Part shown: positions 10,851 through 64,000 of the stretch, piece after piece
Layout of the letters: every line of letters begins with the position of its first letter
Numbering within the stretch: position 1 is the stretch's first letter
DNA from: a virus
Reading direction: 5' to 3' (one strand)
Length of the DNA stretch: 64,000 bases
Virus record (IMG/VR): IMGVR_UViG_3300013004_000041
Location: 1-64,000 of that record
The notes under the pieces: model-generated
What the model saw: the letters and a program-made list of their open reading frames with translations, nothing else
What the model was told of the DNA's origin: nothing
Database searches by the model: none
Program-made: the position numbers and the translations under genes

Positions 10851-12344
10851 TTATTTAATTGTCCACTCGTCGTTCATAATCATATCAAAAAAATCTTTAC
10901 TCTTAATATAATTATCTAACTCTGAGTTTAATTTATTATCTATTCTTTTTAGTTCTTCAGAATAATCTTTTTCTTTTATTTCTTCTAATAGACGATCTCC
11001 ATTAAAGTCCATTCCAGTTGTTCCATAGTAAACCTTGTGTAGGTCATTTTTCCATGAATCCATATCCTCATGAGAGTATACAGGATTCTCTTTAATCTTG
11101 TCAAGGAACTTGATTAGATTATCTGAAATCTTATTGTCTTTCATATAGTCTCTCCAAAAAGGAAAGTCATCTCTATTTGTTATATAATGTATAGCAATAA
11201 AATCTCTACAATCTTCATAAAATTTGTGTACATGTTTATTAAAACTATCTACATCTTTTTGAGTATAATTTTCTAAGTCATAAGTTTCAATAATCTTATT
11301 TAACATTCTAATTGTTCCATGAATAGTAGTAGCCTCCATAGGCTCTAAGAATCCAGACGACAATCCTATAGCAATACAGTTATTAATCCAACTTTCTTTA
11401 TAGTGTCCCGCATTGAAATTAAACTTTTTAATAATCTGAACATCGCCATACTTTTCTTTTATTTCTTTTATTGCTTCTTCTTCTGTAATATATTTAGATG
11501 CATATAAATATCCAGCACCAGTTCTGTGTTGTACTGGAATATTAAATACCCACCCAGCATTCATTGCTATCAACTCTGTATATGGTGGCAATTCTTCCTT
11601 TACTGGAAGGGTAAATGCAAGTCCAGTATCTAATGGTAGATAGGGCTTATAATCAATCCATTCTGATTTAAAATGTTTTCCGATTACTAACCTTTGAAAT
11701 CCAGTACAGTCAATAAGAAAATCACAGTCTATTTCTGATTCATCTTCAAATATAACTTTATTAATGTTTCCGCTATCATCTGTATTAAAACCAGATACTA
11801 TGTTATCTATTATTTTTACTCCACGCTCTTCTGCCTTTTCTCCTAAAAATGCAGCAAGAAGTCTTGCATCAAAATGCCAAGCAACTGACATATGCCATAC
11901 AAATGCTGGATCCTTTATATATTTTGGATCTAACTTATCTCTTAAAAGCGGCAATCTATTGCTATATGCCTGTCTAGAATACATACTAAGTCTGTCAAGA
12001 TTTCCATCTTCTTTAACCGCTGTTGCTAAAACTTGTGGATATATAGAACTATCTTCATATGCAACTGGTGCAAGTCCCATAAAATATTCTGGATTATGCT
12101 TACTCCATCCAGTAAACTTTACGCCTGTTTTGATAGAAGACTTAGTTCTTTTTATAAATTCAAATGGATCTAATTCCATATATTCAAATGCATAATTTGA
12201 ATTTCCTACAGTTCCTTCGCCTGCACCTAAAATATCAAGTTTACTGCTGTTAACTACGGTAATATCAAAATGCGGATATCTTTTTTTAAGAAAGAGAGCA
12301 CTCATCCATCCAGCACTACCTCCGCCAATTATAGTTAATCTCAT
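10851..12344 (-). CDS. Tryptophan-halogenase-like flavin-dependent enzyme (PrnA/RebH family)
   Basis: GGGSAGW, GEGT, conserved Lys (SIKTG), HFDA, IDCTGF, WVFNIP, GFLEPME. Confidence 0.88.
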   Translation of the reverse strand: MRLTIIGGGSAGWMSALFLKKRYPHFDITVVNSSKLDILGAGEGTVGNSNYAFEYMELDPFEFIKRTKSSIKTGVKFTGWSKHNPEYFMGLAPVAYEDSSIYPQVLATAVKEDGNLDRLSMYSRQAYSNRLPLLRDKLDPKYIKDPAFVWHMSVAWHFDARLLAAFLGEKAEERGVKIIDNIVSGFNTDDSGNINKVIFEDESEIDCDFLIDCTGFQRLVIGKHFKSEWIDYKPYLPLDTGLAFTLPVKEELPPYTELIAMNAGWVFNIPVQHRTGAGYLYASKYITEEEAIKEIKEKYGDVQIIKKFNFNAGHYKESWINNCIAIGLSSGFLEPMEATTIHGTIRMLNKIIETYDLENYTQKDVDSFNKHVHKFYEDCRDFIAIHYITNRDDFPFWRDYMKDNKISDNLIKFLDKIKENPVYSHEDMDSWKNDLHKVYYGTTGMDFNGDRLLEEIKEKDYSEELKRIDNKLNSELDNYIKSKDFFDMIMNDEWTIK

Positions 12345-12643: not shown

Positions 12644-13584
12644 ACTAGGATCTCCTTAATTTGATCTTGAAAATTTCTGTCTAGACTAATTATATCAGAG
12701 TCTTCCATATCCCCAATATCTTTATACTTGCTATCTATACTAACTATAGAAAGCATTCCTCCAAGTCTATCTATTAATCTGTCCTTCATCTTTTCCCCAG
12801 CCTCATCGTTATCGGCTATAAGAATAACATCACTAAAGTATTTCTTTAATAGTTCTATTTGTTTAGAAGATACGTTTGCACCCAATGTTGCCACTGCGGA
12901 TAGTCCAACCTGATCAAGCCTTATAGCATCGAATGATGATTCTACAACGTATACCCTACTTGCTGTTTTAACTTTATTCAAATTAAATAAGACTTTAGAC
13001 TTAGGAAGTCCTGGAGTATTTTTAAAATCTTTTCCTTCTATCGACCTTGCCACGAAGCCTACGCAAATACTATCGTGGTTATAAATTGGAATGGTAATCA
13101 TATTTTGATTTTCTGAATAACCTAACCTAAACTTAATAACAGATTCTTTTGTTATCTTTCTTTTTTTAAAATACTCTATGCTTTTTTCTGACGATAAGCC
13201 TTGAGTATTTAATCTAGAAATAATTGACTCGTCAAACTCTATAAACTCTTCTTTATCAACTAATTTAGAAACTATATCAGACACAATGTCTGTCTCAGTT
13301 TCCTTACTCTTAATGAATCTAATAGACTCAAAATATGTTCTGCCAGAAAAATGCATAACTAATTCTATTAAATCTGCCGTCTTGCTACAAGAAAAACAAA
13401 AGAACAGTCCTGTATATTTATTTATTTCTCCTGCTGGAGTTCTATGATTTGAGTGAAATGGACAAAATATAATATACTCTGAGTCTGCTTCTTTTTCTAC
13501 AGTTATGCCAGATCCTGCGAGTACTCGTTTGACCTGCTCTTGTGTGTATATATTGGCTTGTTGCCGTCTATCCCTACGATCCAC
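12640..13584 (-). CDS. dnaG: DNA primase (CHC2 zinc finger plus TOPRIM)
   Basis: CPFH...CFSC, VVESSFD, DNDEAG, KDIGD. Confidence 0.92.
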   Translation of the reverse strand: MDRRDRRQQANIYTQEQVKRVLAGSGITVEKEADSEYIIFCPFHSNHRTPAGEINKYTGLFFCFSCSKTADLIELVMHFSGRTYFESIRFIKSKETETDIVSDIVSKLVDKEEFIEFDESIISRLNTQGLSSEKSIEYFKKRKITKESVIKFRLGYSENQNMITIPIYNHDSICVGFVARSIEGKDFKNTPGLPKSKVLFNLNKVKTASRVYVVESSFDAIRLDQVGLSAVATLGANVSSKQIELLKKYFSDVILIADNDEAGEKMKDRLIDRLGGMLSIVSIDSKYKDIGDMEDSDIISLDRNFQDQIKEILV

Positions 13585-46776: not shown

Positions 46777-48807
46777 CTACGAGATTTTTATTTCACAAAC
46801 ATCTGTAGTACAGTACATTTCGCCCTGTGCCTCAAGATTTTCTGCTCCGTCATAAATAGCGGACCAGTCTATCTTTTTAATCTGACCAATATATGCATTA
46901 TATTCTTCTTCGGTAATTTCTGTATATGGCTGTTGTGGATATACTTTATTTCCCATTGGCAAGAATGAAACTGCTTTTAATTGTCCTTCATACATATGTA
47001 ATGCAGGAGCAACATGCTTTGACTCTGTTTCTTTGTCAAATGAAAGTGTTACAGAAACACCATTATCAGACCAGTACTTCTGAGCAGTAGCAGCAAGCGC
47101 AATCTTTTCAAATAATGTAACATCCTTTTCAGATCTTGAGTGGCCTGAGTGAACTGGGAAATATACGACAGTTGTATTTGCTGATACAAGGTCATCTTCC
47201 ATTTTATATCCAGCAGCCTTGAATAAATGCAACATGGGGTCAGTATTTCCAAAGCGAATTGCTCTCAAGAAATAATTACCTCCTGGTGCCCAGTGAACTC
47301 CTGGCGTTGCGCCAGAAAGAATTGATACAGACCCTGATGGCTTAATAGTTGTAACTCTAATGGACTCACGAACGCATAGCCACTCTGAATACTGATGATC
47401 ATATTTACGAATAGTATTATAACCTTCGTCCATCCATTCTCTTACAACAGGTAAGCCATTCTTGTCTGAGAATGAGGCAATGCCTGTAAGTGATGTTCCA
47501 ATGCGACGATTACGCTGCATAATCCCATTTGTCTGTTGCCAGTGTGTAGGAATCAGCGTTACAGTCTTTCCGTATAGATAGGCAAACTTAAGGGTACGCA
47601 AAAAGTCTTCCTTGGATTCATGTCGATTTAAGTGCACTTCTACAAGTGTACATAATTCATATGATTCCAATGGCTGCTCTGCACATGGATTGAATCCCAT
47701 AACACGGTAATCCTTTCCATCTGGCGCATCCTTAAGTCTGCCGTAGTTACGAGCAACGTCAAGCCAGATAAAGCCTGGTTCTCCGTTGTTAACGATAAGA
47801 TCTACATAGTCTTCGTACTTTGTTCCTATTTCAGCAGCGATAGAATTATTAGACATCCATGCCCACCCTGGATTTTCTGGATCAAATGAATTTCTTTCTG
47901 GGAATACCTCTGCATTTTTTAAATTCATAAAGTCTTCATCTTTAGCAGCACCCAAAGCCAAGGTAGCAGATCTTCTAACATTTCCTGATACAACGCAGGT
48001 ACCAATCAAATTAACTATATCTACTATTGCTCTTGAGTCAAGTGTTTCTCCAGCCCTTCCGCCAATTACAGACCTAATCTGATTGTGGAGTTGAATTAAT
48101 GGTGCTGGACCACTTGCTGTACCGCCAAAACCCTTGATAGGCGCTCCTAGAGGCCTAATTAGGTCATAGTTAAACTCTTGAATAAAATGATTTGGCCTTA
48201 AGTATGAGTTAATAATTAATCTTACAGACTCTACCCAGCCTTCTCTTGTATCTGGAATTTCATATACTTGTGCTGGCTCTGTTGGTTCATAAATAGGAAG
48301 TTGCTTATCAGCACCGACAGTATCGAACCCTACTCCTACACCCATCATTAATGCGTCCATAACCCAAGCAAACAAAGTACCTGGATCGTTTCTATCTATG
48401 TCTTTTGTAGATACCATCGCACAATTTTGTAGTGCTGCAGAGTTTTTCTTTTCCATGGTTAGCGGAGTTCCAAATGCCCACATACCACGTCCTGGTGGCG
48501 TCCACTTTAAATTAAACATGCGATCAAACGCTTCTTTGGCAGATGCTTGTGCCTTATAGTCATTCCAAGGTAGCCTGTTTTCTTTAGCATGATTCTTTTG
48601 AGCCGAATACATACCCTCGATTACTCTACGACAAACCTCATGCCATCTTTCTTTGGTTCCGTCTTCTTTCATACGAGAGTAGGTACGAATAAAAGTAATC
48701 TCTCCAAGTGAATTACCACCAGCATCTGCAAAACCGAATGGTGGCTCTTTTGTTTTATACTCTCCTACAAACTCTTCTGACAAACGAAAACTAAAAAAAT
48801 CTGACAT
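46777..48807 (-). CDS. nrdJ: Class II (adenosylcobalamin) ribonucleotide reductase, monomeric type
   Basis: PPGRG, LQNC, GNVRRSA, NPCAE, TIKPSG, C-terminal CTTDVC. Confidence 0.92.
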   Translation of the reverse strand: MSDFFSFRLSEEFVGEYKTKEPPFGFADAGGNSLGEITFIRTYSRMKEDGTKERWHEVCRRVIEGMYSAQKNHAKENRLPWNDYKAQASAKEAFDRMFNLKWTPPGRGMWAFGTPLTMEKKNSAALQNCAMVSTKDIDRNDPGTLFAWVMDALMMGVGVGFDTVGADKQLPIYEPTEPAQVYEIPDTREGWVESVRLIINSYLRPNHFIQEFNYDLIRPLGAPIKGFGGTASGPAPLIQLHNQIRSVIGGRAGETLDSRAIVDIVNLIGTCVVSGNVRRSATLALGAAKDEDFMNLKNAEVFPERNSFDPENPGWAWMSNNSIAAEIGTKYEDYVDLIVNNGEPGFIWLDVARNYGRLKDAPDGKDYRVMGFNPCAEQPLESYELCTLVEVHLNRHESKEDFLRTLKFAYLYGKTVTLIPTHWQQTNGIMQRNRRIGTSLTGIASFSDKNGLPVVREWMDEGYNTIRKYDHQYSEWLCVRESIRVTTIKPSGSVSILSGATPGVHWAPGGNYFLRAIRFGNTDPMLHLFKAAGYKMEDDLVSANTTVVYFPVHSGHSRSEKDVTLFEKIALAATAQKYWSDNGVSVTLSFDKETESKHVAPALHMYEGQLKAVSFLPMGNKVYPQQPYTEITEEEYNAYIGQIKKIDWSAIYDGAENLEAQGEMYCTTDVCEIKIS

Positions 48808-48894: not shown

Positions 48895-49908
48895 TTAAGA
48901 ATTAAAAATGCTTTGATCTATCCAAGTTTTTGGAGTTAGATCATTTACAATTTCCACTGGCAAATAAAAATTAAATTCTTGTGGGCCACGGCTTCTTACA
49001 AATTCAATCATTCTAGTTAATGTTGTATCTAGTGGAGTTGAAGGATTATAATCTAAAAGCATCCTTGCTTTATCTGCTGAACAGTTAGCAAACCTTACTT
49101 CCTTTGGTCTATCTGGAAGATAGATTGGATCTAAGTCAAATTCTAATAAGTTTGCTATTCTAGATGCCAATTCATTAATTGTTATAAAGTTTTGATCTGG
49201 TCCAAGATTTACTACTTCTCCATCTGCAACATCTGTTTCCACTATTTTTGCAATAGGATCTACAACATCCTGAATGTCTGAAAAACATCTCATCTGTGAA
49301 CCATTACCGTATATGATTGGCTGTCTTCCTTGAAGCATTCTATTTATCATAATACCCGCAACATTTCTAAAAGGGTCTGTATAGACCTGTCCAGGGCCTA
49401 TGATGTTGTGGGGTACAGTTATAGTAAAACTAATGCCGTGAACCTCTGAAAGGACCCTCAGAGACTGTTCAAAGGCTACTTTAGCGACTCCATAAGGATC
49501 CTGTGGTTTTGGAGTCATATTTTCCGTAAATGGCAAAGAGTCCTGGGTTCCGTATCTAGCCATACTGGAGGTAAATATAAACTTTTTTACATTAGACTGT
49601 ATTGCACATTTTAGTACATTCATAGATATTCCAAAGGTGTTATCAGTAATTGTCTTGGGAGAAAATATAGACAAACCCTCATGTGGTGTACATGCTGCGT
49701 GAATTACTATATCTATATCAGCAAAATCTTCTGCTGTAAGATCATTGCAGTCTTTTTCAATAAACTTAATATTTCCTGGAACATTGTCTTTGTACCCCCC
49801 AATAAAATTATCAACACCGATAACCTTATGCTTTATAGAAAGTCTATTTGCTATGTTACTACCAACTAACCCAGCAACTCCAGTTATTAAAATATTACTC
49901 ATAGCCAT
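48895..49908 (-). CDS. NAD-dependent nucleotide-sugar epimerase/dehydratase (SDR)
   Basis: GVAGLVG, TSS, YGVAK, NIIGP, RCFSDIQD. Confidence 0.92.
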   Translation of the reverse strand: MAMSNILITGVAGLVGSNIANRLSIKHKVIGVDNFIGGYKDNVPGNIKFIEKDCNDLTAEDFADIDIVIHAACTPHEGLSIFSPKTITDNTFGISMNVLKCAIQSNVKKFIFTSSMARYGTQDSLPFTENMTPKPQDPYGVAKVAFEQSLRVLSEVHGISFTITVPHNIIGPGQVYTDPFRNVAGIMINRMLQGRQPIIYGNGSQMRCFSDIQDVVDPIAKIVETDVADGEVVNLGPDQNFITINELASRIANLLEFDLDPIYLPDRPKEVRFANCSADKARMLLDYNPSTPLDTTLTRMIEFVRSRGPQEFNFYLPVEIVNDLTPKTWIDQSIFNS

Positions 49909-51043
49909 TACCTAAAAAATAATCAAAACTATTTTTTGCTAACTGCTCATGCCTTTTGCCATAACCAATATTTGAAAAAATAATATCTGATAACTGCTCT
50001 AATATATTTTTTTCAAAATCTGTAATATCTTTAGACATGTTTAAAATATTTATAAAGTCTAACTCTATATCTGATAAATAATAACTGCTCCAATTTTTAT
50101 CATTTCCTTCAAAGAAATCTTTATCAATTTGTAGATACTTTATAACTTTATTCAATTTATCATATTGCTTGGTTTTTATATAAATAGCAGCAATTCTTAA
50201 ATACAAAAACATTTTTTGATATTCGCTAATATCTGTATTCATTAAAGAATCATAAACTGTTTTTGTTTGTTCTGGGTTAAATAATGTATAGGCTAAACTA
50301 ACCAAATATTGATCAGGGATTTCAACATTAACTGAAGATTCTACGTCTTCTATAAAAGCGCTAAGTTCTTTATATATTAAGTTAAAATTATCCTTGTCAT
50401 CTTTTTCATAATATGAAAGAGCAAGGGACATTAGGCCAGATAACATTATTTGATTATTTCTGTATCTTTTAATCTTGCCAACATAATTTAAAAATGAATT
50501 TATATATAATGTTTCTCTATTTTCAAATCTTTCATAATCTCCTGGCATATCTCTAACTTCTACATCTAAAAAAGTTCTTGTCATTTCTTCTGGGAAATAC
50601 CCATATTTTTTAATCTCTGGCCTATATCCGAACCAAAAGCATCCCTGTCTTTTGTGAATTCTAAATAATTTTTTAACAACATTTCCATCTGCCAAACCTT
50701 CAGATGACATTAAGTTACAAACTAAAATTTCTTTATCATCATTATGATCAATTACTTTTGCTTTCCAGTCTTTTGTAATCATGTGCTGATCTATGTCTAA
50801 ATTAATACAATAATCATATTCTAAAGGAATTAAAGAAAGTGCTGTATTTTTTGCATGTGTTTCATCCCATGGATTAAATGCTGCATTTATTACGTTTATG
50901 CCGAAAGACTTTGCGATTTCTATAGTTTTATCTGTGGATCCAGTATCAAGATATAAAATATAGTCTGCATCTTTTATGCCCTCATACCATCCAGCAATAT
51001 TAGATTCTTCGTTTTTACCAACACCATAAGCAGCAATTTTCAT
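49895..51043 (-). CDS. GT2 glycosyltransferase with helical (TPR-like) C-terminus
   Basis: KNEE, DTGSTD, LDID; start at MKIAAY coupled to upstream TAATG. Confidence 0.85.
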   Translation of the reverse strand: MKIAAYGVGKNEESNIAGWYEGIKDADYILYLDTGSTDKTIEIAKSFGINVINAAFNPWDETHAKNTALSLIPLEYDYCINLDIDQHMITKDWKAKVIDHNDDKEILVCNLMSSEGLADGNVVKKLFRIHKRQGCFWFGYRPEIKKYGYFPEEMTRTFLDVEVRDMPGDYERFENRETLYINSFLNYVGKIKRYRNNQIMLSGLMSLALSYYEKDDKDNFNLIYKELSAFIEDVESSVNVEIPDQYLVSLAYTLFNPEQTKTVYDSLMNTDISEYQKMFLYLRIAAIYIKTKQYDKLNKVIKYLQIDKDFFEGNDKNWSSYYLSDIELDFINILNMSKDITDFEKNILEQLSDIIFSNIGYGKRHEQLAKNSFDYFLGNGYE

Positions 51044-51168
51044 TATGGCTTTATCCTTTTTGCCCCGCATCTAGTACATGTTTGATAGGTTCTCATTGTA
51101 TATGGGCATGTTACTTCATCCTTAGATGTTTTATGACCTTTAATATTACACAATATTTTTTTAATCAT
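51043..51168 (-). CDS. Small Cys/His zinc-binding protein (41 aa, DUF1660-like; not in ORF track)
   Basis: Own translation MIKKILCNIKGHKTSKDEVTCPYTMRTYQTCTRCGAKRIKP; AAGGAAG RBS; overlaps both neighbours. Confidence 0.7.
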   Translation of the reverse strand: MIKKILCNIKGHKTSKDEVTCPYTMRTYQTCTRCGAKRIKP

Positions 51169-51358
51169 TTACTTCCTTAAATGAAATTGCCCTATTCGGA
51201 CAATGAGATGCAGCAAGTTCAACCTTATCTTTTAATTCATTAGGAACTGAATATTTCCAAGTTTTTCTTTCACTATCTACAAGTTGAAATATTTCTGGAG
51301 CATCAAAAACACATTGTCCCCACGACTGGCATGCTTTTCCAATCTTAATCTCAATCAT
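51161..51358 (-). CDS. Ferredoxin (single cluster, [3Fe-4S]-type)
   Basis: CQSWGQC...APEIF...AASHCPNRAI; start taken at MIEIKI. Confidence 0.85.
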   Translation of the reverse strand: MIEIKIGKACQSWGQCVFDAPEIFQLVDSERKTWKYSVPNELKDKVELAASHCPNRAISFKEVND

Positions 51359-51668
51359 TTTTAACATCTCCGTAAAACTCAATTTCTTTTAGTGCGCTTA
51401 TTAACTCATACTTTGCGTCGCCATCAAAGTTGTCAAAGTCTGTTTCTTCAATATCCTTTATTAAAACATCTATTCTTTTTTTAACATTTTGATATTGTGC
51501 ATCATTAACTTTTGACTCCTTATTTAAAAAATAAAGTCTATTCCATAATGTATTTCTAAAATAATCTTTATCTTTCTTTAGTTCTGCAATTGTTAGTCCA
51601 GTATCTATAGAATACTTTTTAAAAACAATTAATAAAAAAATAAGCGCAACTAAAAGAACATAAGTCAT
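51351..51668 (-). CDS. Membrane-anchored hypothetical protein
   Basis: N-terminal hydrophobic helix then coiled coil. Confidence 0.65.
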   Translation of the reverse strand: MTYVLLVALIFLLIVFKKYSIDTGLTIAELKKDKDYFRNTLWNRLYFLNKESKVNDAQYQNVKKRIDVLIKDIEETDFDNFDGDAKYELISALKEIEFYGDVKND

Positions 51669-51669
51669 A

Positions 51670-52332
51670 TTACACCAGTGGAATCCAGTGTTGTTCCCAT
51701 TCCTTTGGAATAAAGCGTAATGGAATTACGTCGTATGCCATTGTAATTCTTGGACCATCCCAGTCCCAATCTCCCATAGCATGTGGATGCCCTGTTTCAG
51801 AAAGAATTGCACGATTATTCTTATTGTGATTTTCTATTTCATTTTCAAATACACGATAATGAGTAATAGATGGTTCAGCCTTTACACAATAATAACCGTG
51901 GAAGTACGGAGCACCATCTCCTCCATGTTCATGCCAGTCTAATTTTCCAATGTGGTTATAGTTTACGTTAAACCATCCTTGAACCATAAACTGCTCTTGA
52001 GTAAAATCTAATTCATAATAATCACAAGCATCCTTAGTCATATCACGAACTGCACGGAAAAGAGTATGAATATTAGGATCGTACATTTGAAAAACATTAT
52101 ACTTATTCCAGTTCATAGTAGTAATGCTTCCAGAATTATCCCACGGAGTATTATCATTAAGTTTTTGCTTAACAACCTCTCCTCTTTCAATTCTCTTATA
52201 CTGATCTAAAAGAAATACTTCTAAATCTTCTAGATTATTGATGTCAATTTGTCTCTCAAAAAACTTATGTTCTTTGGTAGATTTACTTGTACTAGGCTGT
52301 GTTGCATCGCCATACTCTGATTGATTTTTCAT
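51670..52332 (-). CDS. 2OG-Fe(II) oxygenase-like protein
   Basis: WFNVN...WHEH...GYY...HPH...RITMAYD double-stranded beta-helix pattern. Confidence 0.7.
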   Translation of the reverse strand: MKNQSEYGDATQPSTSKSTKEHKFFERQIDINNLEDLEVFLLDQYKRIERGEVVKQKLNDNTPWDNSGSITTMNWNKYNVFQMYDPNIHTLFRAVRDMTKDACDYYELDFTQEQFMVQGWFNVNYNHIGKLDWHEHGGDGAPYFHGYYCVKAEPSITHYRVFENEIENHNKNNRAILSETGHPHAMGDWDWDGPRITMAYDVIPLRFIPKEWEQHWIPLV

Positions 52333-52340
52333 TTTTTATC

Positions 52341-53102
52341 CTATCTATATTTTTTTCTCACCCAACGGTGCTTTTTGTAGAACCCATAAAGATAATTTCT
52401 TTTTCTTTCTACGTCCCAGATTCCTTGATTTTGTAAACTATGATCTATCTTTTTTTCCCAATTAGCACGTTTAATTGGAATAAACTGAATAATAGGTGTT
52501 CCCTTTTTAATTGTACCTTCAAAATCTTTTCTTAAAAAGAATGTAACTACATTTCCACTAAACCATCTGTCTGAATCTTGAACTGCAGTCATAGTAAAGA
52601 ATGGAAGGTCATATCTATTAGTTGGATGAGTAATCATTAAAGACCATCCATCTGGTAATTTGCATCCCCATCTCATGTCCCATAAAAAGTGTATAGGATA
52701 GCATCCTGATGGTACTGGGATCTCTAAATGGCCACGCATTTCGATTGGTCTTGGCTCGTCATCTCCCCAAGTAACTTCTGGCTTATTTGGATCATCTGTT
52801 TTTTTAACATGAACATCACATGCAAGTGGTAACTGATATCCCATAGTTAGGGCATCAAAAAATGGCATACAGTGCTTAATGCTAATTGCAGCAGAGTCTG
52901 CTCCTTTATTCCAAGTGACACTAAGATCGTCTATATTGTCATGTAATTGGTATAAGGGTCTATCCTTCCACCAGTCTGGTAAATTGTCAATTGCTGCTAC
53001 TGGTTCTGGTGTAAACTGATAAGCAGTTGAAGCCCAGAACTCTGCCGTAAGATTTTCCATTTCTGGAACATCTTTATACATATCCTCTAACTTATCTCCC
53101 AT
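52341..53102 (-). CDS. DUF6065-like protein, paralog 2
   Basis: PDWW, IKHCMPFFDA..GY, HPTNR, KKGTPIIQFIPIKR. Confidence 0.6.
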   Translation of the reverse strand: MGDKLEDMYKDVPEMENLTAEFWASTAYQFTPEPVAAIDNLPDWWKDRPLYQLHDNIDDLSVTWNKGADSAAISIKHCMPFFDALTMGYQLPLACDVHVKKTDDPNKPEVTWGDDEPRPIEMRGHLEIPVPSGCYPIHFLWDMRWGCKLPDGWSLMITHPTNRYDLPFFTMTAVQDSDRWFSGNVVTFFLRKDFEGTIKKGTPIIQFIPIKRANWEKKIDHSLQNQGIWDVERKRNYLYGFYKKHRWVRKKYR

Positions 53103-53815
53103 TACTTAAACACCTTCTTTTCCCACATAAAATTTTTATAAGATCCGCCAAACTTAGCCCTTAGTTTATACGAAATTGCTTTAAGAGCATGCATATCTGG
53201 CTTTTCTAATATTTCAGATCTAAACTCTTCTCTTTTATAAGGAATACATTGTACTAGGGGAGTGCCCTTTTCAATCGTACCCTTAAATCCTCTTTTTACT
53301 AAAAGAGAGAATGGTCCATCTGAGATGTACATATCGGTATCAATTATAGCAGGAACAATAACAAAAGGCAAATCATCATGAAATGATGGATGGATAAACA
53401 TAGTACTATATCCTTTTTCAGTTCCAATTACCCACATAGGGTGTACTCTAAAAATATCATCTACATATAAATTTTTATCGTATGTCCATCCATCTATCTG
53501 CTCTCTGCTGTGCTTACCAATTACATCATTATGTATTGGATGTACTTGAACTTCAAGGCTTTCTCCAGTTGCATCAACATAAACATCACATGGAAACTTT
53601 AACATGTAACCCGTAACCATTTGATCTAAAATTCCTGGACACTTTTTAATTGTTTCATTATATTGTCCACCAATTAATTTTCTTTCTCCCCCAACAAAAG
53701 GCTCTGTCTTTCTCCACCAGTGAGGTATATTCTTAGACATTGGTTCTGGATGTGGCGCATATTCAAAAGTAAACTCATCTTTTGGAATAAATTTAATATT
53801 TTTTTGTTTTGACAT
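53102..53815 (-). CDS. DUF6065-like protein, paralog 1
   Basis: PHWW, IKKCPGILD...GY, HPSFH, EKGTPLVQCIPYKR. Confidence 0.6.
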   Translation of the reverse strand: MSKQKNIKFIPKDEFTFEYAPHPEPMSKNIPHWWRKTEPFVGGERKLIGGQYNETIKKCPGILDQMVTGYMLKFPCDVYVDATGESLEVQVHPIHNDVIGKHSREQIDGWTYDKNLYVDDIFRVHPMWVIGTEKGYSTMFIHPSFHDDLPFVIVPAIIDTDMYISDGPFSLLVKRGFKGTIEKGTPLVQCIPYKREEFRSEILEKPDMHALKAISYKLRAKFGGSYKNFMWEKKVFK

Positions 53816-53817
53816 TA

Positions 53818-54594
53818 CTATTCCTCTACTCTCATGTACATAAAAATCTCATCATGTTTAATATAAGGAGATTTGCTTCTTACATTGACATACAATTGTA
53901 CAGGAACCTGAACACTTTTGGTATCAACTGGACAATCTATTGTTATTTCTTCAACCTTTATTCTTAATCTTTTTTCTATTTCTTCATCTGTAAAAAATGT
54001 CACCTTAGAAGAATTTTTTGGAAGCCATCGAATATTCCATAAATACCAGTAAGGGTACAGAGCATTCGTATCGTTTTTGCTATATAAGTTATCTATCTCT
54101 TCTTTTGTTAATTTTATATCTTTAATTTTTTCATCATCAACCTCTAGGTGCTGATAGAGAGTTCTACTTAAAGGCATTGGCATTGGAAGGCTAAAATCTT
54201 GTCCAGTTAAAGTATAATTATAATTAAAACTATTCTTTAAAAAAAACACATCAGCAGAAACACGAAGACGATATAGGTTATCTTCAACTTTTTCTGGCTT
54301 ATAATTTGTTTCATGAACCCATCTATTTTCAGGAACCCAATAAGATGCTCCATCATCATATTCTTTATGCCAATCACTTGGAGAATATTGTGGTTGTAGT
54401 TCTCCAGAATCTAGTTTTGGCTGAATTTTTTTTTCATATTCTTTAGTCTCCATGGCAACCTGAGAACTAATTAAAAATGGAGTAGACCTTGTTTTTGACA
54501 AAGTTTCTTTATTCATTGCAACTGTATCATCAGACCACAAGAACTCTTGTTCGCTATAATCTGGATAATAGTTGTCGTTATATTTACGAGACAC
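53818..54594 (-). CDS. Hypothetical protein (possibly divergent member of the adjacent family)
   Basis: GTG start 2 nt after precursor-like gene; WYLWNIRW resembles HFLWDMRW of 52341..53102. Confidence 0.6.
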   Translation of the reverse strand: MSRKYNDNYYPDYSEQEFLWSDDTVAMNKETLSKTRSTPFLISSQVAMETKEYEKKIQPKLDSGELQPQYSPSDWHKEYDDGASYWVPENRWVHETNYKPEKVEDNLYRLRVSADVFFLKNSFNYNYTLTGQDFSLPMPMPLSRTLYQHLEVDDEKIKDIKLTKEEIDNLYSKNDTNALYPYWYLWNIRWLPKNSSKVTFFTDEEIEKRLRIKVEEITIDCPVDTKSVQVPVQLYVNVRSKSPYIKHDEIFMYMRVEE

Positions 54595-54596
54595 TA

Positions 54597-55643
54597 TTAG
54601 TTATCTTTCGTATCGAAAACCAACATTGTTTCTGTAAAGAAGTTGTCGTACGGCTCACAGTTAATAGAGATAACATTGTCAATATAGTTTAATTCTGTTA
54701 CGCTTGTAACTGCAATCCAGTCTTGATTAGAATAATCATAAACTTCATAAGATGTATCTATATCTCTTGAAAGAACAAACTTATAAACATCATCTTTTCT
54801 TGCAAAGATCCAGTGTGTTGGAGAGAAAAGGCTTCCGTTGATGTTGTAAATCTTATCAACAGTCTTTTCTTGTATCGCAACCACCTGAGTTTCAACAACT
54901 TCGATCCCGTCGAATGTTGAAGATGTCCATACTGCTGGATCAAATTGAGAAGTTCCTACTTCTGCGATATTTAGTCCTAGAAGTGTATCTCCAACTTGTA
55001 AAGAACCTGCAGTTACAATTCCTCCTGGAGTTCTAACACCAGTTGATGGTGATAATGAGAAGTAAGATCCGAAACCACCGTATCCTGCTGGAGCATGGCT
55101 AAAACCACCATAACCATGACCAAAGTTATGGTAGAAGCCACCATATGAGTGTGAGAAGTTGTGGTAGAACCCACCATATGAGTGTGAGAAGTTGTGGTAG
55201 AACCCACCATATGAGTGTGAGAAGTTGTGGTAGAAGCCATGGTAGAAACCTGCGTAATGGCTAAATGAGTGGTAGAAGCCATGGTAGAAACCAGCATAGT
55301 GGCTGAAACCAGCATAGTGGCTGAAGCCTGCGTAGTGACTGAAACCAGCATAGTGGCTGAAACCAGCATAGTGGCTGAAGCCTGCGTAGTGGCTGAAACC
55401 TGGATAAACATACTGATAGTAATTAATAGCAACGCTGGTACCAATATTAACTACGGTACCAGCGGTCACTGATTGTGTATTTATCTTTTGATCTAAGTTA
55501 GCATCAGAGGTAGTAGTGCTTGTCTCTGTATATGTTAACCCCTTTAATGTAAGTTCTGCCTGATACTGACTTCTTGTCATACCAGATAGGCTAGGTACAG
55601 AAACCTTTCTTATACCTCTATCACCAGTTCTTTGTAGTGCCAT
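54597..55643 (-). CDS. PASTA-like domain + His/Tyr/Phe/Gly repeat region + C-terminal Hint (intein/hedgehog-like) domain
   Basis: VPSLSGMT..Q..AGT.V PASTA pattern (aa 14-78); repeats aa 80-195; Hint S(196)LSPSTGV..LQVGD, SPTH, VISINCEPYDNFF..MLVFD. Confidence 0.8.
   Translation of the reverse strand: MALQRTGDRGIRKVSVPSLSGMTRSQYQAELTLKGLTYTETSTTTSDANLDQKINTQSVTAGTVVNIGTSVAINYYQYVYPGFSHYAGFSHYAGFSHYAGFSHYAGFSHYAGFSHYAGFYHGFYHSFSHYAGFYHGFYHNFSHSYGGFYHNFSHSYGGFYHNFSHSYGGFYHNFGHGYGGFSHAPAGYGGFGSYFSLSPSTGVRTPGGIVTAGSLQVGDTLLGLNIAEVGTSQFDPAVWTSSTFDGIEVVETQVVAIQEKTVDKIYNINGSLFSPTHWIFARKDDVYKFVLSRDIDTSYEVYDYSNQDWIAVTSVTELNYIDNVISINCEPYDNFFTETMLVFDTKDN
55059..55406 (-). repeat. Coding tandem repeats: 18-nt YAGFSH units and 33-nt FYHNFSHSYGG units
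   Basis: Six GFSH units with synonymous variation in a 54-nt period; CCACCATATGAGTGTGAGAAGTTGTGGTAGAA three times at about 55138-55236. Confidence 0.95.
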
Positions 55644-61457: not shown

Positions 61458-62021
61458 ATGATGAACTTTATGAATAATAACAGGCAAATCATTGGCACAC
61501 TCAGCATATTAGCAATGTTTGGCGTTTGGTCAAATGCCGCTAATGCTTCTGAAAACCGATTAGACGATAGTAAAAATATCGTGCTGCAAGAAACAATAGA
61601 GGCCACGAAAGTGGCCAAAAGTGTTTCTGAGGCTAAAGAAGATCAGTTAGAAAAATATAAAAATGCTGTAAATCTATCTGACAAAGAACTTAAAAATCTA
61701 CTATATTTAGTAGGTTTTGAAGGTCAAAAACTAAGAGAGGCTTGGGCTATTGCTAAGAAAGAATCTGGCGGTAGACCAATGGCGTTAAACCTTAGTAAAA
61801 GAACTGGAGATAGTTCTTATGGCTTATTTCAAATAAATATGATTGGCGACCTTGGTCCTGAGCGTAGAGATAAGTTTAAATTAGAATCAAACTACGAGTT
61901 ATTTAATCCAGTATTAAATGCTCAAATTGCATTTCACATGTCAAACGGCGGTGAAAATTGGATTGCCTGGAAGGGCATCACTCCAAGAACAAAAAGTCTA
62001 ATGTCTAATTTTCCACATTAG
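61458..62021 (+). CDS. Secreted lysozyme-like/SLT lytic transglycosylase
   Basis: Signal peptide ending ANA; AIAKKESGG, SYGLFQIN, NPVLNA, W.AW; AAGGAGG RBS. Confidence 0.88.
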   Translation: MMNFMNNNRQIIGTLSILAMFGVWSNAANASENRLDDSKNIVLQETIEATKVAKSVSEAKEDQLEKYKNAVNLSDKELKNLLYLVGFEGQKLREAWAIAKKESGGRPMALNLSKRTGDSSYGLFQINMIGDLGPERRDKFKLESNYELFNPVLNAQIAFHMSNGGENWIAWKGITPRTKSLMSNFPH

Positions 62022-62721
62022 TATTTTCCCATAAGTGTTTTTCTTTTTGATATCTTTCTTCAAATTCTAAAACACCACGGTAATCACAGCATGGGCATAT
62101 TGGTCTTCCGTCGGAATAATCTGGCTGAGACCAATATCCCATTCTGGCCCTAAATCTAAAGTCTGCCTCATGTCCATGCTTATCAAAACCAGCCTTTCCG
62201 CCTTCTGTAAAAAACCAATGGTCTGGCTCCGCAAATTGCATAAACAATAATGTTACATAGTCATCTTCGTTATCGCTTGGGTATGGAGTTCTCCAATGAA
62301 GCATATCATTTCCAGAAAATAACACACAACTATTAGGCTCTTCTTCAAACTCTTGATCTTCAACAACAAGTTTCCAATCTACAGTTTTCTCAATACAAAT
62401 ATCTAAAGAATATTGACAAGCAGACTGATCCCAATGCTTCCACAATTGTGGCTTAATTCCATTTTGCATTTGGTACCTTGCTGTATGAAAGCCTGCACGT
62501 TTTAAGTTTGGATTATTAAATGTTTTTCTTGCTATATCTAAGATTTCTTTTTCTGTTTCTTCATCAAAATGAATTTCTGTAAGCCATCTACCAGCAACGG
62601 TATGATAGAAATGATTTCCGTCTGGTCCCATATTTTTATCTAATATTTGCTTTTTAACATTGCCAAACATATGCGGTGGCAAAAAATTTTTAATAGCGAT
62701 TGGGCTAGTTATTGATGACAT
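62005..62721 (-). CDS. 2OG-Fe(II) oxygenase
   Basis: HWD...HWR facial-triad pattern; C-terminal CPCC. Confidence 0.75.
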   Translation of the reverse strand: MSSITSPIAIKNFLPPHMFGNVKKQILDKNMGPDGNHFYHTVAGRWLTEIHFDEETEKEILDIARKTFNNPNLKRAGFHTARYQMQNGIKPQLWKHWDQSACQYSLDICIEKTVDWKLVVEDQEFEEEPNSCVLFSGNDMLHWRTPYPSDNEDDYVTLLFMQFAEPDHWFFTEGGKAGFDKHGHEADFRFRARMGYWSQPDYSDGRPICPCCDYRGVLEFEERYQKEKHLWENTNVEN

Positions 62722-63265
62722 TATTACTCCTATTTTGTTCTCTTATTTTTTCAACATACCCTGGGCCTTCTGTAAAAAACCAATGGTCTGGCTCTACATA
62801 ATGAAAAAACACTACACCAATTTTATCATAATTATTAACTTTAGTATCTCTCCAATGCTCGTACTTTTCACCCATAAACATAACTGCCTCATTTGGCTCT
62901 GCCAAAAATTCAACACCATCTACAAATATTCCCCATGGCTCATTTTGATACAGAACTAGGTCTAGGGTATATGTACATGCATTGGCATCCTTGTGTCTAT
63001 GTAAACTAATAGTTTCTGATGAATATTCAGCAAAAAGAGAGTATGAAGGAAGGGCTGTTTCTGTTCCAAAAAACTCCCTTACTTTTGGCAATAATATATT
63101 ACTATATTCTTTTAGTATTGACTCTGACCCATCACCAAGTAGTTTTCTGCCAAACTCGTCTGTTCCTATTCTAGACAATAGTTCATGATTTTTAAAATAT
63201 TCACAGATTCTATTAAAGTCTTCTGGGCTAAGAGCATTTTTTATAATTCCTAACTCTTTATTCAT
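62705..63265 (-). CDS. 2OG-Fe(II) oxygenase, paralog
   Basis: HKD...HWR; shares EPDHWFFTEG with neighbour. Confidence 0.75.
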   Translation of the reverse strand: MNKELGIIKNALSPEDFNRICEYFKNHELLSRIGTDEFGRKLLGDGSESILKEYSNILLPKVREFFGTETALPSYSLFAEYSSETISLHRHKDANACTYTLDLVLYQNEPWGIFVDGVEFLAEPNEAVMFMGEKYEHWRDTKVNNYDKIGVVFFHYVEPDHWFFTEGPGYVEKIREQNRSNNVINN

Positions 63266-64000
63266 TTATATACCTCTTCATATTTCCAGAAAAATAATGA
63301 TGTATAAAGACATCATCTTTATTTGTTGTATCAAAGTCTGTACCTAAACATATATCTTTATCTTCAAAATACTCATATTTTATATTGCTTTGACGAATAT
63401 TATAATATGCAGCATATTGAGAAACATTCCAGAAGAAGATGTGATCTGTATTTGAATTAAGGCTACTAAAAATTTTATCTGTAAAATTATTAATTGTATC
63501 TATCCACAGTAGTTCAAAGTCTTTTAAGATTTTATTTATTTCTGTTTTACTTAATATCATTTGTCCATCATTGATTCCTGGATTTATATTAAGACTCTTT
63601 ATAAAATTTTGAACAACGCCGTCGTTAAACTCTTTTTTAAAATAACACATGTCCTTATTGTATTTATTTAATAATTCTATTGGACTTTTATAAAAAATAG
63701 TATCTGTATCTAAAAATAAAACTCTATCATATTCATGCTGTTTGATAAAATTTAAAATATTTATCCATCTATGATGAAGCCAAATGTTCCATGGATGAAC
63801 TGGAACTTTATTGCTCCATCTTTTAAAAACCTCATCATTGTTAAAATCAATAAGAATAACTTTATTATCTATAAAAAACTGGTCTATAATTTTTGTTTTA
63901 GATGATATGTAAACAAAAATATCAATATCTGAAAACTTTCTTATTGAAGATATGGAATGTTTCAATTGTTTATAGTTATGATGAACTGATGGATTGTCTT
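63258..64000 (-). CDS. GT-A fold nucleotide-diphospho-sugar transferase, 5' truncated
   Basis: FLDTDTIF, INDGQ, IHHY; frame stays open to the window end. Confidence 0.7.
   Translation of the reverse strand, partial: DNPSVHHNYKQLKHSISSIRKFSDIDIFVYISSKTKIIDQFFIDNKVILIDFNNDEVFKRWSNKVPVHPWNIWLHHRWINILNFIKQHEYDRVLFLDTDTIFYKSPIELLNKYNKDMCYFKKEFNDGVVQNFIKSLNINPGINDGQMILSKTEINKILKDFELLWIDTINNFTDKIFSSLNSNTDHIFFWNVSQYAAYYNIRQSNIKYEYFEDKDICLGTDFDTTNKDDVFIHHYFSGNMKRYINE

Follow-up and report, generated by a model that had tools for sequence, protein, structure and literature searches.

What does a bacteriophage gain from a protein that joins a PASTA domain, a long histidine- and aromatic-rich repeat and a C-terminal Hint domain, and what do the enzyme genes trailing behind it do? 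The question is raised by the IMG/VR virus record IMGVR_UViG_3300013004_000041, an 81-kb record (about 75% complete) whose first 64 kb are analyzed here and are called the window. The protein, named PRH (PASTA-repeat-Hint) in the following, was proposed in an earlier note on this DNA to be the multi-core precursor of a pathway resembling those of RiPPs (ribosomally synthesized and post-translationally modified peptides). The present analysis points elsewhere. PRH appears to be a member of a large phage family of fibre partners, in which a variable binding module and a Phe-rich repeat precede a conserved Hint domain. The best explanation as a whole, to which a probability of about 0.5 is given, is that PRH is a partner of the adjacent tail fibre, is processed by its Hint domain, and is acted on, or accompanied in its action, by the enzymes of the cassette behind it.

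PRH and the tail fibre

The features on which the argument turns are the following.

54597-55643, minus strand: PRH, an open reading frame of 348 amino acids (aa) with 50 relatives among 5.8 billion proteins and 189 confirmed IMG/VR stretches
55425-55604, minus strand: PASTA domain, residues 14-73 (Pfam PF03793, E 5.9e-7)
55059-55406, minus strand: uncharged Gly/Tyr/Phe/His/Ser repeat, residues 80-195, with 19 F-x-H motifs
54600-55058, minus strand: predicted non-splicing Hint domain (B-type bacterial intein-like, BIL, or Hog-like), residues 196-348, from matches to PDB profiles and, in the family, to PF14890
55688-57505, minus strand: tail-fibre gene, 605 aa (PHROG tail-fibre families, best E 6.4e-42)

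The last ~115 residues of the fibre protein form a conserved C-terminal domain, whose profile gave chance-level spike matches only in the PDB. A fibre gene carrying this domain lies directly upstream of the Hint-family gene in 50 of the 51 distinct loci with enough upstream sequence, counting those in which the fibre gene ends between -200 and +250 nt from the start of the Hint-family gene. The pairing is seen in every repeat class and on two phage backbones. It is the strongest association found, and PRH is therefore read as a fibre partner and not as a precursor peptide; the tie to the adjacent tail fibre, which the earlier note had suggested, is thereby borne out.

Keeping the best 80 of the 189 confirmed IMG/VR stretches yielded 54 distinct full-length relatives, whose conserved part is the C-terminal ~155 residues. 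The Hint domain is constant across this family, and the N-terminal module and the repeat are variable. The N-terminal module is PASTA in 20 of the 54 members and one to several fn3 domains instead in 23, fn3 and Ig-like domains being typical of phage virion-surface proteins. The middle module is always a Phe-rich low-complexity repeat, which reads GF(S/Y)H in the window and is built elsewhere on FGF(T/A)P, (GAF)n, FFP, PPF, NPGF or PT-rich units.

The PASTA-like N-domain recognized earlier proves to be one PASTA domain, scoring 29.8 bits against a PF03793 gathering cut-off of 23.2. The earlier count of 19 F-x-H motifs is likewise exact: they span residues 83-181, and in 2000 shuffles of PRH they number 1.65 on average and never more than 7. 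The 116 residues of the repeat (80-195) comprise 24 Gly, 21 Tyr, 21 Phe, 19 His, 16 Ser, 9 Ala, 4 Asn and 2 Pro, with no Asp, Glu, Lys or Arg at all. Its DNA has periods of 18/54 nt (87-98% matches) and 33 nt (96%), and the relatives of PRH carry from 9 to 26 of the motifs.

Among the INPHARED phages neither the DNA of the region nor the whole PRH protein found a match. In cultured phages only the Hint part was matched, at 26-34% identity, by "virion structural proteins" of ~480 aa from jumbo phages of Erwinia, Dickeya and Yersinia. The gene for gp112 of Erwinia phage vB_EamM_Alexandra (L085 2978-4420) is located between tail and tail-fibre genes, and its product has collagen-like G-x-y repeats and, at the C-terminus, a canonical Hint domain, with Cys1, THEHP and a His-Asn that precedes Thr and a 10-residue tail. 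Thus, Hint-capped tail-module proteins exist in cultured jumbo phages too.

The Hint domain

Statements on folds made here rest on sequence profiles and on the ESM Atlas. PRH is the only match to PF14890 (Intein_splicing) in the genome; taken alone it scores 13.7 bits (E 0.0016), below the cut-off, and 14 of the 54 family members match at E<=0.01. A profile of the 54 C-terminal domains reaches the BIL domain 2lwy at E 3.5e-4, the gp41-1 intein (6riz) at 5e-3 and the PolB intein (9hth) at 0.069. The Hint domains of the 54 members are 35-87% identical to that of the window, and Ser196, Gly218, Thr252, His277 and the stretch INCEPYDNFFT...LVFD are invariant or nearly so.

The alignment places Ser196 one residue before position 5 of the gp41-1 chain (intein residue 1). 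Block B reads SPTH in the window, and its S-x-x-His277 aligns with the TxxH of the PolB intein. At the positions where inteins carry His-Asn, PRH carries Phe-Asp and ends four residues further on, because of which it is not considered an intein. Its C-terminus appears to be a Hint domain of the B-type BIL/Hog kind, by the type definitions in the consulted part of PMC7765530. With this lineup an N-terminal (thio)ester and cleavage or transfer would be possible, and splicing would not. The Hint domain of the earlier note thus stands, as a non-splicing one whose +1 residue is Ser and which lacks the terminal His-Asn. Ser196 is invariant in 54/54 distinct IMG/VR members and in 19/19 sequences of a second set, and His277 in 54/54, which argues that catalysis is retained in most members.

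A distant His-repeat subgroup (L093, L136 and L195; IMGVR_UViG_3300017917_001147) carries Tyr where the others have the block-B His, and IKAQP where they have INCEP.

The cassette and the repeat classes

The fibre gene, PRH and the nine cassette genes trailing it are all on the minus strand, in the order tail fibre, PRH, hyp258, A237, B253, ox220, mem105, ferredoxin, zn41, GT391 and epimerase. Downstream of the epimerase come a reductase gene, a 1241-aa gene and the portal gene.

53818-54594, minus strand: hyp258, an orphan protein with the motifs NRWxHE, SRTLY, WxxRWxP and YIKHD
53102-53815, minus strand: A237, the first DUF6065-like gene (phrog_7084, 6.8e-40)
52341-53102, minus strand: B253, the second DUF6065-like paralog (phrog_7084, 4.6e-30), 25% identical to A237
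51670-52332, minus strand: ox220, a possible oxygenase resembling 2OG-FeII_Oxy_5 (ESM Atlas lead)
51351-51668, minus strand: mem105, an open reading frame for a small protein with a visibly hydrophobic N-terminus, conserved in cassettes
51161-51382, minus strand: single-cluster ferredoxin (Fer4_15 1.3e-7 and Fer4_13 1e-6, both above cut-off)
51043-51168, minus strand: zn41, a 41-aa Cys/His-rich peptide (DUF1660 5.7e-4, just below cut-off; phrog_2670 5.7e-5)
49895-51070, minus strand: GT391, a GT-A glycosyltransferase (GT) with a helical tail (phrog_13126, 1.4e-31)
48895-49908, minus strand: epi337, a nucleoside diphosphate-sugar 4-epimerase/dehydratase-type short-chain dehydrogenase/reductase (PF01370, 5.3e-42)
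46777-48807, minus strand: class II-type ribonucleotide reductase (phrog_367, 1e-144)

The nine cassette genes are co-oriented and tightly packed, with gaps of 2, 2, 8 and 1 nt and overlaps of 1, 8 and 14 nt. The nominal overlaps of the ferredoxin gene (32 nt, with a TTG start) and of GT391 (28 nt) are larger, and become smaller if translation starts at later ATGs, where the homologue alignments begin. PRH is separated from the upstream fibre gene by 44 nt, and the epimerase from the downstream reductase by 87 nt. All genes listed by the earlier note are present on this strand, and the close spacing it described holds once the two doubtful starts are moved to those of the homologues. Promoter and terminator scans gave site numbers no higher than in shuffles, and operon boundaries are therefore left unclaimed.

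The content of the cassette varies with the class of the repeat. Loci with His repeats carry hyp258, two phrog_7084 genes, ox220, mem105, ferredoxin and zn41, with or without the GT and epimerase. FGFxP repeats are followed by one phrog_7084 gene, in some loci with one or two ox220-like genes, and GAF repeats by one phrog_7084 gene only. Behind FFP and PPF repeats lie two to six oxygenases of the prolyl 4-hydroxylase (P4H) type and a true DUF6065 gene (PF19541, 3.6e-36), and PT-rich members have a P4H-type gene (PF13640) and a PF11397 "GlcNAc" transferase behind them. Proline content was compared with the P4H-type gene in the 48 of 54 distinct loci that have at least 3.5 kb downstream (six were dropped), over 7 kb downstream, a Pro-rich repeat being one with at least 25% Pro in 30 residues. 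A P4H-type gene was found in 18 of 21 loci with Pro-rich repeats against 3 of 27 others, and in 0/16 His-repeat loci. The comparison of repeat type with neighbouring enzymes, which the earlier note had proposed as a test, thus favours co-variation: His repeats go with hyp258, ferredoxin and a second DUF6065-like gene, Pro-rich repeats with prolyl-hydroxylase-type genes, and Gly-Ala-Phe repeats with neither. PRH is the Pro-free His/aromatic variant of a modular family, with an enzyme set of its own and no prolyl hydroxylase.

Inheritance of the cassette

The reductase is 83-94% identical among phages with entirely different neighbouring cassettes, and is therefore a handy marker of the phage backbone. 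Sixty distinct loci (122 before duplicate removal) have both a full reductase and a complete Hint gene. Among them, hyp258 and ferredoxin occur in 14/14 His-repeat loci and in 0/46 others, and two phrog_7084 copies in 14/14 against 1/46. The reductase tree demands 8 changes of cassette label. Seven independent pairs on its well-supported branches all point in the same direction for hyp258 and ferredoxin (7/7, p 0.0156), as do 6.9/7 for the second phrog_7084 copy and 6/7 for mem105; the association is weaker for ox220 (4.3/7) and GT391 (4.1/7). In a 26-row reductase set the pairs agree 5/5, and the approximately unbiased (AU) test rejects a single His-repeat clade (p 1.1e-5), for a group that was named after the data had been seen. 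Although the block was exchanged against the reductase gene at least 7 times, none of the 60 loci has a chimeric version of it. That the block, measured against the backbone, is inherited whole or not at all supports the idea of cassette-specific tailoring. In IMG/VR, hyp258 lies directly behind a His-repeat Hint gene in 26/26 loci, as found by a search that detects only sequences retaining its two conserved peptides.

The cassette genes

The invariant polar motifs of hyp258 look catalytic. The protein has no match in Pfam, PHROG or NCBIfam and one chance-level match by PDB profile; an exhaustive profile search of 1.84 billion proteins returned 20 representatives, apparently one small family, and no bridge to a known one.

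A237 and B253 are firm members of phrog_7084 and are best read as distant relatives of DUF6065. DUF6065 itself (PF19541) matches 3 of 31 members of the family, below its gathering score (best E 0.016), and nothing in the genome. Aligned by hhalign with the true DUF6065 genes of sister cassettes, phrog_7084 gave E 0.0019 and a probability of 14% over 166 colinear columns, and an ESM Atlas lead also links the A237/B253 family to DUF6065. The profile of the family found nothing usable in the PDB. A dUTPase-like fold, suggested for phrog_7084 by a GxxDxD...GTPxxQ pattern and one weak match, was dropped, since PF00692 finds nothing in the genome.

For ox220, PF13759 is the annotation of 19 of the 30 nearest ESM Atlas clusters (score 0.96), and inspection by eye suggests an HEH...H...R (HxH...H...R) pattern, which distant members do not keep. 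None of 20 family members matches Pfam at E<=1, the PDB profile search gave nothing, PF13759 is absent from the genome and the family is unrelated to the P4H-type profile.

No family match was obtained for mem105, which the earlier note had called a membrane protein; what speaks for the name is the hydrophobic N-terminus. The ferredoxin has three Cys, in a Cx5C...CP pattern recognized by eye, and its cluster is presumably 3Fe-4S. GT391 scores 19.4 bits against Pfam GT2, below the cut-off, and its sole solved relative at E<=1 is the domain of the flagellin O-GlcNAc transferase GmaR (E 1.4e-7). The likeness to SunS drawn in the earlier note therefore falls away, SunS structures being present in the PDB. 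The best solved relative of epi337 is the UDP-glucose 4-epimerase 4zrm (6e-35). Of the 14 distinct His-repeat loci that extend at least 3.5 kb downstream, 8 contain GT391, as does the window; its position differs in L021 and L024, and the epimerase is confined to a subset of loci; both are absent from about half of the cassettes and so are not the core parts they had been taken for. An NCBIfam scan of the cassette proteins added nothing new. Among the labels first given to these genes, those of the epimerase (PF01370) and the ferredoxin (Fer4_15) are well supported, and GT2, DUF6065-like, 2-oxoglutarate (2OG) oxygenase and Zn peptide find weaker backing.

Proposed mechanism and alternatives

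PRH would act as the partner of the upstream fibre, with a PASTA module of the peptidoglycan-binding type, an uncharged repeat and a non-splicing Hint domain. Ser196, aided by the block-B His277, would attack the carbonyl of Phe195 in an N-to-O acyl shift; the ester would be resolved by water or another nucleophile and the Hint cap removed, so that the PASTA-repeat polypeptide could be set free or passed on at the fibre or close to it. This part of the proposal, a fibre partner processed by its Hint domain, is considered probable. The seven genes from hyp258 to zn41 would form one inherited unit with PRH, and some of their products, at least, probably work on PRH or together with it. The favoured guess is that ox220, ferredoxin, hyp258 and the two DUF6065-like proteins oxidatively change the His/Tyr/Phe-rich repeat; GT391 and the epimerase would be an optional add-on, which could O-glycosylate Ser/Thr of PRH or of another virion protein. 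That the cassette enzymes modify the repeat of PRH is put forward tentatively, with somewhat less than even confidence. Tailoring of fibre-associated repeats by cassette enzymes together with Hint processing is nevertheless plausible, and would be consistent with everything seen.

A bolder version can be formulated, in which hyp258, the DUF6065-like pair, the 2OG-Oxy_5-like protein and the ferredoxin would first modify the repeat oxidatively or cross-link its His and Tyr residues, after which the Ser196 ester would ligate the PASTA-repeat part to the C-terminal domain of the fibre or to the host cell wall. The result would be a chemically cured adhesive appendage, made likewise in sister cassettes through hydroxyproline glycosylation. 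It is speculative, and is judged unlikely in this full form.

Several observations weigh against the proposal that the cassette serves PRH. DUF6065-like genes are far commoner than Hint genes, occurring in at least 598 IMG/VR stretches, and the best 80 of these loci include a Hint gene in just 37. The earlier note had expected the enzymes to keep company with repeat-Hint genes. Tandem A+B pairs often do not, for in 34 of 43 the retrieved flanks contain no Hint gene (flanks of at least 5 kb to either side in 15 of the 34), whereas hyp258 does in all 26 of its loci. A close relative of the window phage, with a reductase 93% identical, has its A/B pair ~60 kb from its Hint locus. The Hint domain finds 33 records at E<=1, and these include none of the 50 haloarchaeal-virus and cyanophage records that carry the DUF6065-like family; in HSTV-2 the gene of that family adjoins those for thymidylate synthase and DNA polymerase. 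The ox220-like genes (393 IMG/VR stretches) speak for the proposal, being near a Hint gene in 52 of the 57 loci whose flanks reach 5 kb or more to either side, but this proximity partly reflects one shared conserved region. The oxidative chemistry meets difficulties of its own: hidden Markov models detect no oxygenase domain in ox220, and a 2OG oxygenase has no need of a ferredoxin. FGFxP repeats, although they include Pro, have no P4H-type gene, and the presence of the GT and epimerase has, by eye, no visible link to the Ser/Thr content of the repeat. The tree of the Hint domain is compatible with a single origin of the His-repeat class; on it, the pairs for His repeats and hyp258 fall to 1 on well-supported branches (3 on all), and those for P4H and Pro to 3 (5 on all), which is not significant. 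The cassette genes are also contiguous, and block transfer is therefore expected from linkage alone. Finally, the subgroup with Tyr in block B retains hyp258, both DUF6065-like genes, mem105, ferredoxin and a relocated ox220; Hint catalysis may have been lost there while the enzyme set persists, and the two are therefore not strictly tied.

Much of this would follow if the stretch between fibre and reductase were a recombination hot spot, holding a plastic island of accessory genes whose products act on envelope glycans, small molecules or other virion proteins and which travel with PRH by mere adjacency. The gene content of the gap varies widely between lineages, a class II ribonucleotide reductase stands in the same gap among structural genes, and the GT and epimerase come, go and change position. 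The DUF6065-like pairs without Hint genes, the pair placed elsewhere in the close relative, beside a carbamoyltransferase, and the halovirus genes next to those of nucleotide metabolism fit this picture too, as does the co-transfer of contiguous genes through linkage. Against it, no chimeric block is seen among the 60 loci after at least 7 exchanges against the reductase; hyp258 occurs in no other context (26/26); and the tracking of Pro-rich repeats by P4H-type genes and of PT-rich ones by PF11397 is hard to explain as random cargo. Such an island is held to be possible but doubtful.

PRH might, on the other hand, be a structural linker only, its Hint-like part serving as a folding or assembly cap or as an inert attachment domain and its repeat as an unmodified spacer with a length set by slippage. 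Tailspikes carry self-cleaving C-terminal chaperone domains. The repeat units, 87-98% alike in their DNA and 9 to 26 in number among relatives, resemble contingency-type surface repeats, and the chemistry of the repeat is very free (GFxH, FGFxP, GAF, FFP, PPF, NPGF); genes of the GAF class are trailed by just one DUF6065-like gene, and one subgroup has no block-B His. The invariance of Ser196 (54 + 19 sequences) and of His277 (54/54) speaks for catalysis being kept in most members, and the strict association with hyp258 and ferredoxin would be left unexplained, so that a linker pure and simple appears improbable.

A RiPP-like pathway, in which the repeats would be multiple core peptides tailored and released as small modified peptides, is suggested only by an outward resemblance, that of a repetitive open reading frame with oxidase-like and glycosyltransferase genes behind it, and is very improbable for a 348-aa multidomain protein without leader/core layout that begins with a folded PASTA or fn3 domain, is paired with a fibre gene in 50/51 loci, has neither cleavage motifs nor charged residues between units that drift freely in number and type, and is accompanied by no class-defining enzyme, recognition element, peptidase or exporter in searches of ten proteins against Pfam, PHROG and NCBIfam. 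What survives of the interpretation in the earlier note is thus the Hint domain, the fibre link and the co-variation of enzymes, and what has been given up is the RiPP label, the SunS analogy and the GT and epimerase as core parts.

Host and other features of the genome

With its counterparts in Actinomycetia phage DSL-LC01 and Mycobacterium phage Gaia, the reductase of the window shares 63.6% and 61.4% identity, respectively; this similarity and the PASTA domain make an actinobacterial host likely. A search for the host marker WhiB gave one 14-bit match only. The reductase gene is placed among structural genes, between the block of fibre and cassette and the 1241-aa and portal genes.

Two further features of the window are of note.

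62005-64000, minus strand: start of a second cassette (L083 1006-6333, genome 62005-67332, continuing beyond the window), with two paralogous oxygenase-like genes and a GT-like gene
10851-12344, minus strand: full-length gene of the flavin-dependent tryptophan-halogenase type (PF04820, E 2.6e-103; phrog_2928)

Beyond the window the second cassette contains a P4H-type oxygenase (PF13640, 3.7e-16), a small Cys protein and a 489-aa PASTA-like protein (PASTA match 3.4e-4, below cut-off) that has ~40 PPVT units and Cys-rich modules and lacks a Hint domain. Its 209-aa fibre-like gene shares the fibre C-terminal domain with the 605-aa gene (38% identity, E 3e-14), and the genome thus holds a second pair of fibre-like gene and PASTA-repeat gene. 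A small protein ending in CKKCGC...K..CPLGKW, with a weak DUF6171 match, is present in two copies (L083 3601-3831, minus strand, and 13323-13523, plus strand), one in the second cassette and the other elsewhere in the genome. Two collagen-like (G-x-y) proteins (L083 9042-10574, genome about 70041-71573) adjoin further fibre-like genes, and are candidate alternative substrates for the P4H-type oxygenase of the genome.

In the close relative mentioned above, the island that holds the displaced gene pair (IMGVR_UViG_3300035670_000069, L232 1904-15032) encodes a PA14 protein with a long Pro/Glu/Thr-rich tract, a CHAP protein, the tandem DUF6065-like pair, a GT-like protein, two 2OG-oxygenase-like proteins (one PF13640, P4H-type), a NodU/CmcH-type carbamoyltransferase and a member of a 324-aa family. 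This family recurs in the genome of the window (L083 11661-12563) and in cassettes of the PPF class.

Significance

If the proposal holds, a large group of uncultured lake-type phages would construct their fibre appendages out of low-complexity repeats, with Hint domains performing the self-processing and cassette enzymes the tailoring. Substrates would be provided for orphan enzyme families that phage genomes often carry, namely DUF6065/phrog_7084, 2OG-FeII_Oxy_5-like and the viral P4H-type oxygenases. It would also represent a second kind of post-translational chemistry of the virion beside glycosylation, and a non-developmental use of Hedgehog-type autoprocessing. The Pro-free variant, having no prolyl hydroxylases and a different enzyme set, can therefore serve as a natural control for the family-wide hypothesis, and its His/aromatic repeat would be a good entry point for new protein chemistry.

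Comparison with known systems

The literature searched, mostly as titles and abstracts and otherwise as parts of main texts only, contained no paper describing such a phage module of Hint domain, repeat and enzymes; the matches listed for BIL domains and phages, judged by title, included none on such a module, and a search on DUF6065 found no paper. The consulted parts of the phage Hint literature (PMC3556154, PMC5259590) deal with terminase inteins only.

Mycobacteriophage glycosyltransferases act on the phages' own virion structural proteins (Freeman et al. 2023, as presented in the consulted part of PMC12619734). The likeness lies in actinobacterial phages that encode GTs, and GT391 with the epimerase could do likewise; the mycobacteriophage targets named in that part are, however, the C-termini of capsid and tail-tube subunits, whereas the GT of the window is optional and the core of its cassette is not a GT. 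The O-GlcNAc transferase GmaR of Listeria monocytogenes modifies flagellin, a filament protein (PMC9638930, in the part consulted). Like GT391 it has an N-terminal GT-A domain (residues 11-147, E 1.4e-7) followed by a helical region, but the likeness is limited to the first ~140 residues and GT391 lacks the anti-repressor part.

Cassettes related to that of the window also recall a eukaryotic pathway. In the Skp1 pathway of Dictyostelium and Toxoplasma, a prolyl 4-hydroxylase is paired with a hydroxyproline-GlcNAc transferase. The sister cassettes, with PF13640 oxygenases and PF11397 behind Pro/Thr-rich Hint proteins, resemble this pairing, as does the P4H-type gene behind the PPVT-repeat PASTA protein in the genome of the window; the PRH cassette differs from it in its Pro-free repeat, the absence of a P4H-type gene and enzymes of other families. 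In the nucleoporins Nup98/Nup145, a Phe-rich low-complexity repeat precedes a C-terminal domain in which a Ser nucleophile brings about self-cleavage at a Phe-Ser bond. This offers a working analogy for PRH, that of a sticky repeat with an autoproteolytic cap; fold and biology are unrelated, and homology is not claimed.

The nearest likeness is to the B-type BIL and Hog domains, with which PRH shares the Hint blocks, a nucleophile at position 1, a block-B His and the lack of a C-terminal His-Asn. B-type BIL domains, the best solved match being 2lwy of C. thermocellum, also sit, as that of PRH does, in variable, non-conserved proteins. PRH differs from both in having Ser and not Cys at +1, in having no sterol-recognition region, and in carrying its Hint domain at the extreme C-terminus of a putative phage fibre partner, behind an aromatic low-complexity repeat.

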